Notes: a model not told the origin generated them from the letters alone. Shown: positions 11,015-14,804, numbered from the stretch's first letter. The stretch is 64,000 nt of DNA from Bacteriovoracaceae bacterium (GCA_018649885.1 JABIHA010000080.1:1-64000); one strand, 5' to 3'. Numbers and translations: made by a program.

Positions 11015-11241
11015 GAGAAATAATTAGCACCATGTCATCTCTTTGGCAAAGGAGTAAGGTTATATGAGAATTTGTCGCAGTGAGGGCAGGCCTTGGACAC
11101 TTCAAATAAACGATGTTCTAATTAATTGATCAAAAGTTGTGTCTGCAATTCGCGTAGACGGGTGCTGAGGGAGTGGCATTTCGAATAGGCCGAAACGGAA
11201 TTCGGCGAAACCCCAAACAATGGTTTTTTAGGAGCGCTAAG

Positions 11242-13506
11242 GTGCAAAAAATTCTTCTATTATTGATAGTTTTGGCAATCAGTATTTCTTGCGGTTCAGA
11301 AGATCAACCTGAACCAGGATCATCATTTCAAATGAAACCAAGGGGAGAAGTCTTTTCAGTGTCAAGTGAACTTGAAAAACTAAACGCTTCCACATTTTTT
11401 ATTAAGTCTAACTCTGATAGGTATCCACCTCACAATTCTTGGAAGTCGTTCACTAGACTAATGAAAGAAGTTTCGATTTTTGATGCCACCACTAAGAAAA
11501 TAATGGCGGCCCTTTGTAGCGGTGACACCAACAAGTCAGTACTTATTGTTGGTGAGCCATCAGAAGCTTATCGTTATATTTTCTCTCGTCTTCCTTTTAT
11601 TACTCGTCAGGGTTGTAATCAGCAAATTCACGCCGAAATAAATATCAGTAAAATTGAAGAAGGCAGAAAGTATGTAGGAGAAGTTGAAAAATACTGGAAT
11701 GAATATATTGTTTCTCCTTCAGAGAAACACGATGTGGTGCTCTATCTAAAAAATCTAGGGATGCTCATAGGTCTTGGCTCTCACAGCCATGATTCAACTG
11801 GGATTGAAGCGGAATACGCTAGTAATATTTCTTCAGGAAGAATTAAAAGTGTGGCTTTTATCAATAAATACGAATTTAATAAACTTCAATTTTCTGAGCA
11901 CGCCTATGTTTTGGCCTCTTTTGCAGAAACTATTACTCTAGACGCACCAGGATCTTTAAAAGTTGGGCAGTTGGCCCAAAAATACCTAGAGGTTCTTCAT
12001 CCCCAATTATCTATTTCCAAAAGTAATTTAGATTACTTAGTAAAAATGACTTCTTACTACAGGCCCAATATTACAGAGCCTGGAAGAACAATTCAGATAT
12101 TAAAAAGTATGATTCGGGAGTATGAAGGGGAGCTTAACACTGCTGAAAAAAGCGTGAACTTTGAAACTAAGCATCCTTATAATTCTAGAAGCAATATTTC
12201 TAGGGTCATTAAATTTGATGGCGTAGAATCAATTTCCCTTTCCTTTACACGCTTTGAAACCCAAAGTGATGCTGATTATCTCTCTATCATTGATGGAGAA
12301 ACGAATATTGAGCTCGATAAGCTCAGTGGAGATAAGGGGGCCTTTGAAACAAAGTTTTACCCAAGTGCTCATTTGATACTAAAGTTTTCGAGTAATTTAT
12401 CTGTCCAAAGTTGGGGGTTTGATCTCAAAAAAGTGACAGTGGTAAAAAGTGGAAAAAAAGAGTTCACAAGAGATCAAGTGAGAAGGTCTCTTCTTTCAAC
12501 TGCACAGCTTCCTGAGTGGCTCATTGATAAAAAGTTTGATGTCATAAAAGGGTTGGGGAAAAAGCTTGATTTGGATGTTGTAGGAGTTTCCGAGGGAAAA
12601 AAAGATGTCATAAGGCTGAGTAAAATTGGCTATGTTGCAGGAAGAACAGATAAGAAGCCCATTGCCTCCGCATTACTTGTGGGGCCCACTGGGACGGGCA
12701 AGAGCTACCTTGCTAAGAAAGTCTCAGAGTATTTGGGACTTGGACTTGTTACTTTTGATATGACTTCCTATCGAACAGATGAAAGTTTTGATCGTTTTTT
12801 AGAAGTTCTCTCAAATTATCTTATTCTCTATCCTTATTCAGTTTACCTGTTTGAAGAGATCGATAAGGCCTCCATCAAAATATTAGACCGCCTTTATTTC
12901 ATGCTCGACGAGGGGATATTTTACGACAAGTACCAAAGGCCTTTATTTGCCAGAGGCGCTTATATTATGATGACCACTAATATGGCCTCGGACACAATTA
13001 TTAAGAACAAAGACAACCCAAAGCTTAGAGAACTTGTGGATCTTAAACTTCAAAAATCTTTCAGACCTAGTTTTTTAAATCGCTTTGATGCCATTACCTT
13101 ATTTAAACCCTTTAGTGATGCTGAATTTGTAAAACTGGCAAAAATCATGGTGGGTAAGAAAGTGAGACTCTTAAAAGAGCGCTTTGGCTGGGATCTTACA
13201 ATTGATAGCGCAACTATTTCTTATCTAGGTCAAAAAGGAAAGTCTTCTGTCTTTGGTGCCAGACCAATGGAGAGGCTCATTGAATCGGTAATATCTGTAG
13301 GAATTGCAGAGTGGCAACTTGCAAATGGAAGCATTCCCGAAAAAGGACATATCTCTATTACCCAGGTTTCCGGAAAAGATCAGTACTATAAAATTACAGA
13401 TGGCTCTCGCTCAGTGCTGGAGTATCATGTGGTGCCAAAAAACAATTCAGGTTTTATCCAAAGTATACTGGAGAGCATTTTTAGACAAAATAGATCGTTA
13501 AATTAA
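11242..13506 (+). CDS. Lipoprotein-signal Hsp100/Clp-like AAA+ protein with internal CUB domain
   Basis: GTG 11242 after AGGAG gives MQKILLLLIVLAISISC. D1 is degenerate (VGEPSEAYR, GRKYVGEVE). CUB-like segment at about 12160-12440. D2 has GPTGTGKS, LFEEIDKA, MTTN, FLNRFD, GARPMER. Confidence 0.85.
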   Translation: MQKILLLLIVLAISISCGSEDQPEPGSSFQMKPRGEVFSVSSELEKLNASTFFIKSNSDRYPPHNSWKSFTRLMKEVSIFDATTKKIMAALCSGDTNKSVLIVGEPSEAYRYIFSRLPFITRQGCNQQIHAEINISKIEEGRKYVGEVEKYWNEYIVSPSEKHDVVLYLKNLGMLIGLGSHSHDSTGIEAEYASNISSGRIKSVAFINKYEFNKLQFSEHAYVLASFAETITLDAPGSLKVGQLAQKYLEVLHPQLSISKSNLDYLVKMTSYYRPNITEPGRTIQILKSMIREYEGELNTAEKSVNFETKHPYNSRSNISRVIKFDGVESISLSFTRFETQSDADYLSIIDGETNIELDKLSGDKGAFETKFYPSAHLILKFSSNLSVQSWGFDLKKVTVVKSGKKEFTRDQVRRSLLSTAQLPEWLIDKKFDVIKGLGKKLDLDVVGVSEGKKDVIRLSKIGYVAGRTDKKPIASALLVGPTGTGKSYLAKKVSEYLGLGLVTFDMTSYRTDESFDRFLEVLSNYLILYPYSVYLFEEIDKASIKILDRLYFMLDEGIFYDKYQRPLFARGAYIMMTTNMASDTIIKNKDNPKLRELVDLKLQKSFRPSFLNRFDAITLFKPFSDAEFVKLAKIMVGKKVRLLKERFGWDLTIDSATISYLGQKGKSSVFGARPMERLIESVISVGIAEWQLANGSIPEKGHISITQVSGKDQYYKITDGSRSVLEYHVVPKNNSGFIQSILESIFRQNRSLN

Positions 13507-13520
13507 TAGATGGAGAGAAT

Positions 13521-14804
13521 ATGATGAAATGGATTTCAACTATTTTACTTTTAGCGTGCTTTTGCACGACTTATGTCATGGCAAGCTCAGTCCCTGGAGA
13601 GTTCTTACTCAAAGTTGACACTGAAACAAGTGGCCTTGTTTTAAAATCAAAAATTAAACGCTGGGGAGTTCAAAAATCTCAATTTCTTTCAGGAAAGAAT
13701 TTGATTGTGAATTTGAAAATACCCAAGAATCGGGAATCGAAGACCCTAGAGCTTATAAGAAAAGATCCATCAATTCTTTTAGTAGAACCAAATTATATTT
13801 ATCGATCCTTTACAGCAGCTGATCCTGCCTATCGCAATATGTGGGGTCTAAAAAATACTGGTCGAAATACTGGTTCATGGTTTGGTGGAACCAAAGGTAT
13901 GGATATTAACGCCGAAAAGGCCTGGACGCTTTCAAAGGGCTCAGACAATGTTGTCATCGCTATTATTGATACAGGCCTTGACTACAAACATCCCGATCTT
14001 GCCAGAAATGTTTGGGTTAATAGTGCCGAGGCTTCAGGAACAGCTGGAGTTGATGATGATGGCAATGGGTTAATAGATGATATCCACGGGTATGATTTTA
14101 TTAATGATGATGGGGATCCAGATGATGATCAAGGACATGGAACTCACTGTGCGGGAGTGATTGGTGCTATTCACGACAACGGCATTGGTGGAAAAGGTGT
14201 GATGGACCGAGTGAAGATCATGCCACTTAAGTTTCTTTCAAGCGCCGGGTTTGGCACACTGGAGGCAGCGATTAAGGCAGTGGACTACGCTACTAAAATG
14301 GGTGCTACCCTGACTTCTAATTCATGGGGCGGAGGAGAAAAATCAGATCTTCTTTTTGAGTCTATTAAAAGAGCACAGGCTGCTGACATTCTTTTCATTG
14401 CGGCCTCTGGAAATGCCAAAAATGATAATGATAAATGGGGGACTTTTCCTGCTAGCTACAAATTAGACAATATTATCACTGTCGCCGCCTATGATGGTTA
14501 TGGCAAAAGAGCAGGCTTTTCAAATTACGGAAAGACCTCAGTACATGTTAGCGCACCAGGTGTAAAAATCCTTTCCACCTTTAAAGGTGGCAGATATAAA
14601 AAGCTTAGTGGCACCTCTATGGCCACACCACATGTATCAGGTGCCATAGGGCTTCTTTTAAGTCTGTACCCCCACTTAACTGCCGCTCAAGTAAAAAAAC
14701 GAGTGATTGCCACCAGTAAAGAGGTTGTAAAACTTAAAGATGTCAGTGAGTCGGGTGGAAGAATGGATGCTTATCGTCTATTAACTGATGATCGTTCAAG
14801 ATGA
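13521..14804 (+). CDS. Secreted S8 (subtilisin-like) serine protease
   Basis: Signal peptide, propeptide, catalytic IIDTG / HGTHCAG / GTSMATP. Confidence 0.95.
   Translation: MMKWISTILLLACFCTTYVMASSVPGEFLLKVDTETSGLVLKSKIKRWGVQKSQFLSGKNLIVNLKIPKNRESKTLELIRKDPSILLVEPNYIYRSFTAADPAYRNMWGLKNTGRNTGSWFGGTKGMDINAEKAWTLSKGSDNVVIAIIDTGLDYKHPDLARNVWVNSAEASGTAGVDDDGNGLIDDIHGYDFINDDGDPDDDQGHGTHCAGVIGAIHDNGIGGKGVMDRVKIMPLKFLSSAGFGTLEAAIKAVDYATKMGATLTSNSWGGGEKSDLLFESIKRAQAADILFIAASGNAKNDNDKWGTFPASYKLDNIITVAAYDGYGKRAGFSNYGKTSVHVSAPGVKILSTFKGGRYKKLSGTSMATPHVSGAIGLLLSLYPHLTAAQVKKRVIATSKEVVKLKDVSESGGRMDAYRLLTDDRSR

Follow-up and report, generated by a model that had tools for sequence, protein, structure and literature searches.

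Of the AAA+ proteins described so far, those closest to the one reported here are the class I Hsp100/Clp proteins (ClpB/Hsp104, ClpA and ClpC), followed by a few families that act outside the cytosol. Plasmodium HSP101 (of PTEX) and the mitochondrial CLPB/Skd3 are threading machines with pore loops in eukaryotic compartments, and protein quality control in the bacterial periplasm is taught as ATP-independent. Torsins, such as TorsinA with LAP1/LULL1, have no pore loops and are not believed to thread polypeptides, according to the part of PMC4999309 drawn on here. Here we describe a gene for a 754-residue protein at positions 11242 to 13506 of a 64,000-nucleotide stretch of DNA from a Bacteriovoracaceae bacterium (GCA_018649885.1 JABIHA010000080.1:1-64000; the whole stretch is called the window below), which an earlier note made from the sequence alone had read as an exported Hsp100/Clp-type protein with a CUB domain. 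Our analyses suggest that it represents a real and conserved exported Hsp100 variant that is apparently undescribed, as searches of the open literature turned up no account of a family of this kind (subscription papers and supplements lay outside the search). The reading that we favor, at a probability of roughly 45%, is that of an exported, ClpB-derived two-tier AAA+ protein, lipid-anchored in this copy, forming a ring in which D2 would burn ATP, a nucleotide-dead D1 would grip the client and a partner would deliver the ATP.

Similar to class I Clps, the protein has a tandem D1-D2 fold, the catalytic motifs of D2 and an insert at the M-domain site. However, it carries a signal peptide where the Clp N-domain would be, has lost the D1 motifs, has the D2 GYVG loop deleted, lacks the IGF/L loop and bears a CUB domain in place of the coiled coil; with these five defining features failing it should not be filed as ClpA, ClpB or ClpC, and the NCBIfam Clp models score it at about 120 against cut-offs of 990-1230. 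With torsin it shares the ClpB-D2-like fold, a (here predicted) location in a secretory compartment, the absence of a D2 pore loop, conserved cysteines and a nucleotide-dead AAA partner fold (structure match Z 19.0; the torsin features as given in the part of PMC4999309 cited). Torsins, though, are single-AAA-domain proteins of the eukaryotic endoplasmic reticulum with their activator on a separate chain, whereas here one chain carries the Arg finger, the GAR motif and a fused dead domain with pore loops, and the Cys pair sits in D1. The protein also failed as a member of the Torsin family itself, having two AAA domains, GAR rather than GCK, and a Pfam Torsin score of 13.7 bits against a cut-off of 27. 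HSP101 and CLPB/Skd3 likewise place the Hsp100 fold outside the cytosol (structure matches at Z 24.0 and 26.5) but have no CUB domain. In function, the protein would come closest to lumenal AAA+ proteins such as torsin, as their bacterial analogue.

A conserved family with an export signal

The gene, its start and the features that bear on export are as follows.

11242..13506, plus strand: signal-bearing Clp/Hsp100-derived AAA+ gene (open frame of 754 residues; domain, profile and structure matches)
11230..11234, plus strand: Shine-Dalgarno sequence AGGAG, 7 nt ahead of the GTG start at 11242
11242..11292, plus strand: predicted lipoprotein signal peptide (residues 1-16) and Cys17 (hydropathy heuristic and PROSITE-type lipobox rule)
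11290..11358, plus strand: residues 17-39, candidate linker serving as a flexible tether (predicted local distance difference test, pLDDT, below 50)
11515..11616, plus strand: invariant Cys92 and Cys125, candidate disulfide (52/52 each)

The GTG start at 11242 and its AGGAG, both proposed earlier, stand, with the frame open from there; an upstream GTG at 11173 was rejected because it would add a basic 23-residue leader seen in no homologue. The Hsp100/Clp architecture was likewise borne out by Pfam, profile alignment and the AlphaFold model. Pfam places CUB at residues 311-395, AAA_2 at 472-618 and ClpB_D2-small at 626-705, and a scan for the Clp N-terminal domain (PF02861), together with a comparison of homologues, found no match in the protein. 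Aligned by hhalign against 34 ordinary Clps, 52 family members gave 549 aligned columns (probability 100, E 1.7e-59), and in the AlphaFold model (mean pLDDT 89) both tiers match ClpA, ClpB and ClpC, the closest class I Clp structures scoring a Foldseek E of 3e-34 and VIA Z of 27-28. The model further suggests that residues 17-39 are likely a flexible tether.

A homologue search, which scored the best 7999 candidates only, returned 52 full-length relatives at E < 1e-175 (41-56% identity) and then a gap to ordinary Clps; remoter members came from a profile search, and a dozen of these have no CUB insert. A quick tree built on D2 from 84 rows, in which long branches are unsure and from which 2 of 86 sequences had been dropped as having no Walker A match, joined the 42 family rows in one clade on a long stem (SH-aLRT 100). 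The family occurs in 11 of 401 sampled genomes of the phylum, and its members come mostly from records titled Bdellovibrionales, Halobacteriovorax, Oligoflexales or Bacteriovoracia, plus one Limisphaerales; the host of our gene is probably a Halobacteriovorax-like bacterium within Bdellovibrionota. A second paralogue lies on contig C1 of the same genome as our gene, and a phage search gave no match at E 1e-30. The Limisphaerales-labelled member (bin label unverified) is directly upstream of an NTT-like gene, and this gene pair has a slightly lower G+C content than its flanks. One record labelled Sulfitobacter (L012) shares its gene order with L009 and L013, both Halobacteriovorax loci, is 97% identical to L013 at the protein level and is probably a mislabelled or mis-binned contig. 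We also noted separate signal-bearing proteins of two or three Clp D2-like domains (P0144, P0146, P0160, P0164, P0172 and P0187); three of these were placed in the D2 tree and fell among the ordinary Clps, outside the family, which suggests that export of Clp domains arose more than once.

By our own hydropathy heuristic a signal peptide was scored in 50/52 family members as compared to 1/34 control Clps, the two remaining members being N-terminally truncated in appearance, and no further hydrophobic segment was found beyond the signal in any of the 52. The N-terminus of the 754-residue protein, MQKILLLLIVLAISIS-C17, satisfies a PROSITE-type lipobox pattern. The lipoprotein signal predicted in the earlier note therefore holds in part: the signal peptide is conserved, while the lipobox Cys is found in only 3/52 members including our own, most others having a signal-peptidase-I-like (SPI-like) signal, and the lipid anchor is thus predicted to be a feature of this copy rather than of the family. 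In three Halobacteriovorax genomes the signal region is under purifying selection (pN, the proportion of nonsynonymous differences, 0.00-0.02). Cys92 and Cys125 are invariant, and 47/52 members have exactly two Cys past residue 30, a pattern expected for a structural disulfide. The conserved signal, the selection acting on it and the Cys pair, with both SPI-like and lipoprotein forms occurring, back the placement of the protein in the envelope, and we regard its export from the cytoplasm as very probable from these sequence features. Among homologues the architecture is conserved and the signal general, the CUB domain being dispensable.

A proposed engine in D2 and grip in D1

The D2 features are given below.

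12517..13446, plus strand: D2 AAA+ module (Pfam and alignment of 52 homologues; ClpB nucleotide-binding domain 2, NBD2, at Z 28.5)
12682..12705, plus strand: D2 Walker A (alignment of 52 homologues)
12796..12810, plus strand: site of a 12-residue deletion by which the D2 GYVG pore loop is lost (spacing from DM[ST] to Walker B)
12841..12864, plus strand: D2 Walker B FEEIDK (alignment of 52 homologues)
13081..13083, plus strand: D2 Arg finger R614 (alignment of 52 homologues)
13255..13263, plus strand: D2 sensor 2 GAR (alignment of 52 homologues)

Walker A, Walker B, sensor 1 (T-x-N), R614 and GAR of D2 are invariant or nearly so across the 52 homologues at 41-56% identity, and D2 is under purifying selection (ratio of nonsynonymous to synonymous rates, dN/dS, 0.03-0.06 in three related genomes). 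D2 therefore probably hydrolyses ATP, as judged from its retained residues, and the Arg finger points to hydrolysis in trans and so to an oligomer. The retention of these motifs had been seen before; what had gone unnoticed were two losses, which we scored in 68 of the 69 family members and in 31 control Clps. The spacing from DM[ST] to Walker B is 32 in 68/68 members and 44-48 in 31/31 controls, the GYVG pore loop being present in 0/68 versus 30/31, and the IGF/L loop that docks ClpP is found in 0/68 members versus 18/31 controls. Of the earlier suggestion of an unfoldase or scaffold, the deletion of the pore loop together with the missing ClpP-docking loop makes a canonical unfoldase unlikely.

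D1 presents the opposite picture.

11467..12132, plus strand: D1 AAA+ module, about residues 76-297, without ATPase motifs yet conserved (profile alignment and NBD1 structure match)
11551..11574, plus strand: degenerate D1 Walker A GEPSEAYR, aligning with Clp GEPGVGKT (hhalign)
11662..11682, plus strand: retained D1 pore loop GRKYVGE, aligning with Clp GTKYRGE (G141 and G146 invariant)
11740..11754, plus strand: degenerate D1 Walker B LYLKN, aligning with Clp LFIDE (hhalign)

D1 resembles NBD1 of ClpB and Hsp104 in structure (Z 18.7-19.4) and is under purifying selection (dN/dS 0.02-0.06 in the same kind of comparison of three related genomes), and yet GKT/S is found in 0/68 family members as against 30/31 controls. 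That D1 had lost both Walker motifs and kept the GRKYVGE loop was read correctly from the single sequence, and holds in hhalign and in the 52 homologues: both pore-facing loops are conserved (G141, Y/F144, G146 and W152; G177, G179, G187 and E189), and residue 144 is aromatic (Y/F) in 50/52. In ClpB the D2 pore loop is essential for disaggregation and the D1 loop partly dispensable, at least in the part of PMC6593972 consulted. The family keeps the reverse of this need, with the pore loops held by a D1 lacking nucleotide motifs and the D2 loop gone.

A CUB domain at the M-domain site

12133..12450, plus strand: CUB domain at the M-domain site (Pfam, hhalign position and fold search)

The CUB domain, previously proposed to lie between D1 and D2 at the middle-domain position, proved to be there: Pfam PF00431 matches residues 311-395 at 24.6 bits against a cut-off of 21.4, and residues 302-402 of the AlphaFold model match Kremen1 (Z 13.8, root-mean-square deviation 2.4, 100 residues aligned) and neuropilin-2 (Z 12.9). 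A phmmer search of the Protein Data Bank (PDB) with the CUB sequence alone gave no match, although the fold search did. By hhalign the helix equivalent to PDKAIDL precedes the insert and the segment equivalent to 'VT..EI..VV' follows it, a position that corresponds to the M-domain site of ClpB and ClpC, so that an all-beta CUB stands in the D1 lid in place of the coiled-coil M-domain. At least 12 members of the family lack the CUB. These CUB-less members are both basal and nested in the D2 tree (two lie beside the 754-residue protein, with weak support), which points to the CUB as an optional module. The family consensus at the candidate Ca2+ ligand set is Y313, E341, D345 and D385, a Tyr-Glu-Asp-Asp set like that of the calcium-binding CUB subtype; at two of these positions, where E (43/52) and D (41/52) prevail in the family, the 754-residue protein instead carries Q341 and N385, and so has lost two of the acidic candidate ligands.

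Proteins joining a subtilase to a CUB have been noted in Bdellovibrio bacteriovorus (PMC2605481, in the portion available to us), and their CUB is of the same subtype; theirs is C-terminal on the protease, whereas ours is inserted in an AAA+ lid. The CUB of the 754-residue protein shares 23-29% identity with the CUBs at the C-termini of three secreted S8-CUB subtilases of the same genome, and by sequence such secreted subtilases are its likely source.

A small conserved partner and a candidate ATP supply

Beside the family gene we found a sole conserved neighbor, a 210-residue gene that is adjacent in 17 of 23 genome loci and present in 20/23 of those genomes. In the 401 phylum genomes, a sample that overlaps the 23 family genomes and in which kin are not independent, the family was found in 11 genomes, the partner in 13 (one of them a weak match) and both together in 10. 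Among metagenome loci carrying the partner the family gene follows directly in 7/9, and the other 2 show no downstream gene. Where full-length partner genes lie away from the family gene (n=7), five are at most three genes from another signal-bearing ATP-binding protein and two are at contig ends. On contig C140 of our own genome the partner (C140:23233-23874) is near two further signal-bearing Clps; genome G064 has one copy between two signal-bearing PPDK_N dikinases (contig C5) and a second copy following a tandem pair of signal-bearing classical AAA proteins (C3); and in genomes G018 and G347 it is near a signal-bearing dikinase homologue. A dikinase query matches 4/401 genomes, 3 of which also have the partner. 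The partner is linked to three unrelated folds that have in common a requirement for ATP beyond the cytoplasm, and a shared supply function would best explain this. From these neighborhoods we judge the chances that the partner supplies ATP to be about even. The route by which ATP might reach the periplasm is stated to be unknown in the part of one review that we cite (PMC7432876).

The partner, tentatively a membrane protein, is predicted with confidence as six helices (structure model, pLDDT 86), with a median net charge of +14 and invariant Arg, Lys, Glu and Asp in the helices. We obtained no clear match for it in Pfam, NCBIfam, PDB sequence, the ESM Atlas, Foldseek (pdb and viral) or VIA-wide searches, and against known carriers (Tim17/NDUFA11, an ECF S component and the mitochondrial carrier) there was no sequence match and VIA Z of 6.7, 6.3 and 4.5, within noise.

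The NTT/TLC nucleotide transporters offer a second comparison. A TLC protein is present in the C140 operon of our own genome (Pfam TLC 58 bits against a cut-off of 21), and in genome G082, where the partner is absent, an NTT-like gene 36% identical to it lies directly behind the family gene; the NTT-like proteins are divergent and below the TIGR00769 cut-off, though, and the common 210-residue partner is unrelated to NTT. As a general ATP source NTT/TLC was rejected, with close relatives in 2/23 family and 5/401 phylum genomes; the four that we inspected in further genomes have no Clp or dikinase nearby.

Signal peptides are borne in our own genome by at least ten AAA proteins and by three PPDK_N proteins, so that the use of ATP outside the cytoplasm may be more widespread in this organism.

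Proposed mechanism and its alternatives

In the mechanism that we propose, Sec would export the protein, Cys92 and Cys125 would then form a disulfide and D1 would become a scaffold independent of nucleotide. With neither a D2 pore loop nor a ClpP loop, the ring would not thread chains processively; movements of D2 would instead be relayed to the D1 pore loops, which would pull or prise apart an envelope client, a disassembly or release activity resembling torsin in the loss of the D2 loop. The CUB, in the M-domain's stead, may be an optional docking site on the outer belt of the ring. The cell itself would pump ATP out across its inner membrane, with the 210-residue partner, or an NTT-like exchanger where the partner is missing, exporting ATP and taking ADP back.

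Several observations weigh against this proposal. A motor that grips with D1 only is without tested precedent, since ClpB needs its D2 pore loop to disaggregate (PMC6593972, as cited in part above), and in several CUB-less members the D1 aromatic residue is replaced by His or Thr. No family or fold could be assigned to the partner, its best Z of 6.7 not rising above noise, and as clear hydrophobicity is confined to one of its six helices, even the designation 'membrane protein' is tentative. It is absent from 3/23 family genomes, one of which (G083) also has no NTT-like gene, and one of the dikinase genomes (G328) has no partner match. Close NTT-like relatives occur in 2/23 family genomes only, with the G066 copy away from the family gene, and score 53 against the TIGR00769 cut-off of 387; moreover characterized NTTs serve uptake, as far as the cited part of PMC5381601 goes. 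Lastly, the conserved neighbors at the 23 genome loci point to no client.

The same direction of known NTT transport lends weight to an alternative in which the motor runs on ATP from outside, that is from invaded or lysed prey or after delivery into prey, with the partner and the NTT-like proteins importing nucleotides. The company the genes keep fits it too, with 22/23 genome loci labelled as or fitting Bdellovibrionota, Oligoflexia or unassigned bacteria (the remaining one being the Sulfitobacter label, syntenic with Halobacteriovorax) and secreted proteases beside the family genes in our own genome. However, a family present in only 11/401 phylum genomes is too patchy to be core predation gear, one member is in the Limisphaerales-labelled record, and for an importer there would be no advantage in close linkage to three unrelated exported ATP-consuming families. 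ATP from prey, as the earlier note had it, is therefore not the best fit, and we consider it unlikely while taking it seriously. The loss of both the D1 motifs and the D2 pore loop, a partner without transporter fold and the example of torsin, a ClpB-D2 fold without pore loops in a secretory compartment (Z 19.0; PMC4999309, same part), would all suit an extracytoplasmic scaffold gated by or sensing nucleotide, with a D2 that would bind ATP or hydrolyse it slowly and a partner that would relay its state inward or anchor the ring. We find this quite unlikely given the invariant catalytic residues of D2, including the in-trans Arg finger and sensor 2, and the conserved D1 pore loops; a single anchor or transducer would also have to suit three unrelated folds.

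An extracytoplasmic analogue of ClpAP, threading prey or envelope proteins processively into secreted S8 or trypsin proteases, appears improbable to us. S8 genes do adjoin both paralogues in our own genome, the C140 operon joins two signal-bearing Clps to a trypsin, the CUB resembles those of the genome's own S8-CUB proteases and P0138 seems by eye to have a trypsin-like N-terminal domain, which Pfam did not confirm; but the D2 pore loop, a strict requirement in ClpB (PMC6593972, cited part), is deleted in 68/68 members, and the protease neighbors are not conserved, with S8 at 1/23 other loci and about 4 kb off. Finally, the protein might be a degenerate Clp in the cytoplasm or tethered to the membrane whose N-terminus is merely signal-like. 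Our signal calls come from a heuristic that flags a few ordinary Clps too (of 188 Walker A proteins, the 29 that passed were mostly family members). Set against this are short hydrophobic regions that alternate between SPI-like and lipobox forms, the invariant Cys pair, the extracellular type of the CUB, the secreted proteins in the same operons and the ClpA, ClpB/C, ClpX and HslU of our own genome, where no comparable signal was found, and we think that such a location is highly improbable.

Should the proposed exported two-tier motor be correct, a conserved signal-bearing Hsp100 together with one candidate exporter, which also accompanies two unrelated ATP-binding families, would turn the question of periplasmic ATP into a transport assay on the 210-residue protein, and the division between an engine (D2) and a grip (D1) would be a natural test of ring coupling in two-tier AAA+ motors. 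At present it is rather speculative, and in our view less likely than not, that certain bacteria maintain a compartment powered by ATP beyond the inner membrane, in which a new family of small ATP exporters, replaceable by NTT-like exchangers, fuels exported AAA+ rings and dikinases, and in which the split-duty Hsp100 would be the bacterial counterpart of torsin. If true, this would be an ATP export route not yet known in bacteria.

Neighboring genes and further signal-bearing proteins

13521..14804, plus strand: co-directional subtilase (S8) with a signal peptide, 14 nt downstream of the 754-residue gene

This S8 gene was rejected as a conserved partner, as it is not adjacent at the 23 other loci and the one S8 gene seen among them is the distant one described above; it may be an operon partner in our own genome only. 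Scans for a promoter and a terminator around the 754-residue gene gave chance level only. At window:9002-9871 lies a gene with an HNH endonuclease domain; genes of this type occur close to the family gene in L009 and L015 as well, and it is probably a mobile or repeated element.

The C140 operon (C140:16467-28084; L028:6468-18085) is co-directional throughout and holds 907- and 792-residue signal-bearing Clp-like ATPases, a signal-bearing vWA protein, a trypsin, the 210-residue partner, an RCC1-repeat protein, the TLC-family transporter and an unassigned secreted protein; in the 792-residue ATPase neither Walker A motif is lost and the GYVG loop of D2 is still there. Our own genome further has three tandem pairs of classical AAA ATPases (C5:31289-34089, C7:39687-42404 and C83:11737-14506), every gene with a signal peptide, and a query with the tandem pair found no match in 60 relatives, but such a pair does adjoin the partner in G064.

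Signal-bearing PPDK_N (ATP-grasp) proteins occur at L060:6300-15996, L034:12226-13707, L092:10113-11684 and L107:8071-10965, and on C7, C76 and C132 of our own genome; they have a conserved S-H-V-Q-L resembling a phospho-His swivel, and their genes are often beside FGE-sulfatase-like or leucine-rich-repeat proteins. In G018 (L034:1210-11713) six similar secreted leucine-rich-repeat genes flank the partner gene, and in G030 (L035:4400-6469) the C-terminal part of a 689-residue signal-bearing protein weakly matches the partner profile (E 3e-10), as a fused or distant form. The NTT-like genes of three genomes (L108:3229-8471, L109:3734-8970 and L110:6772-12710) adjoin a PAP2-type gene, an Omp85-like gene and a lipoprotein, the last of which has a weak HipA-like kinase match (E 0.036) and is possibly another exported user of ATP.

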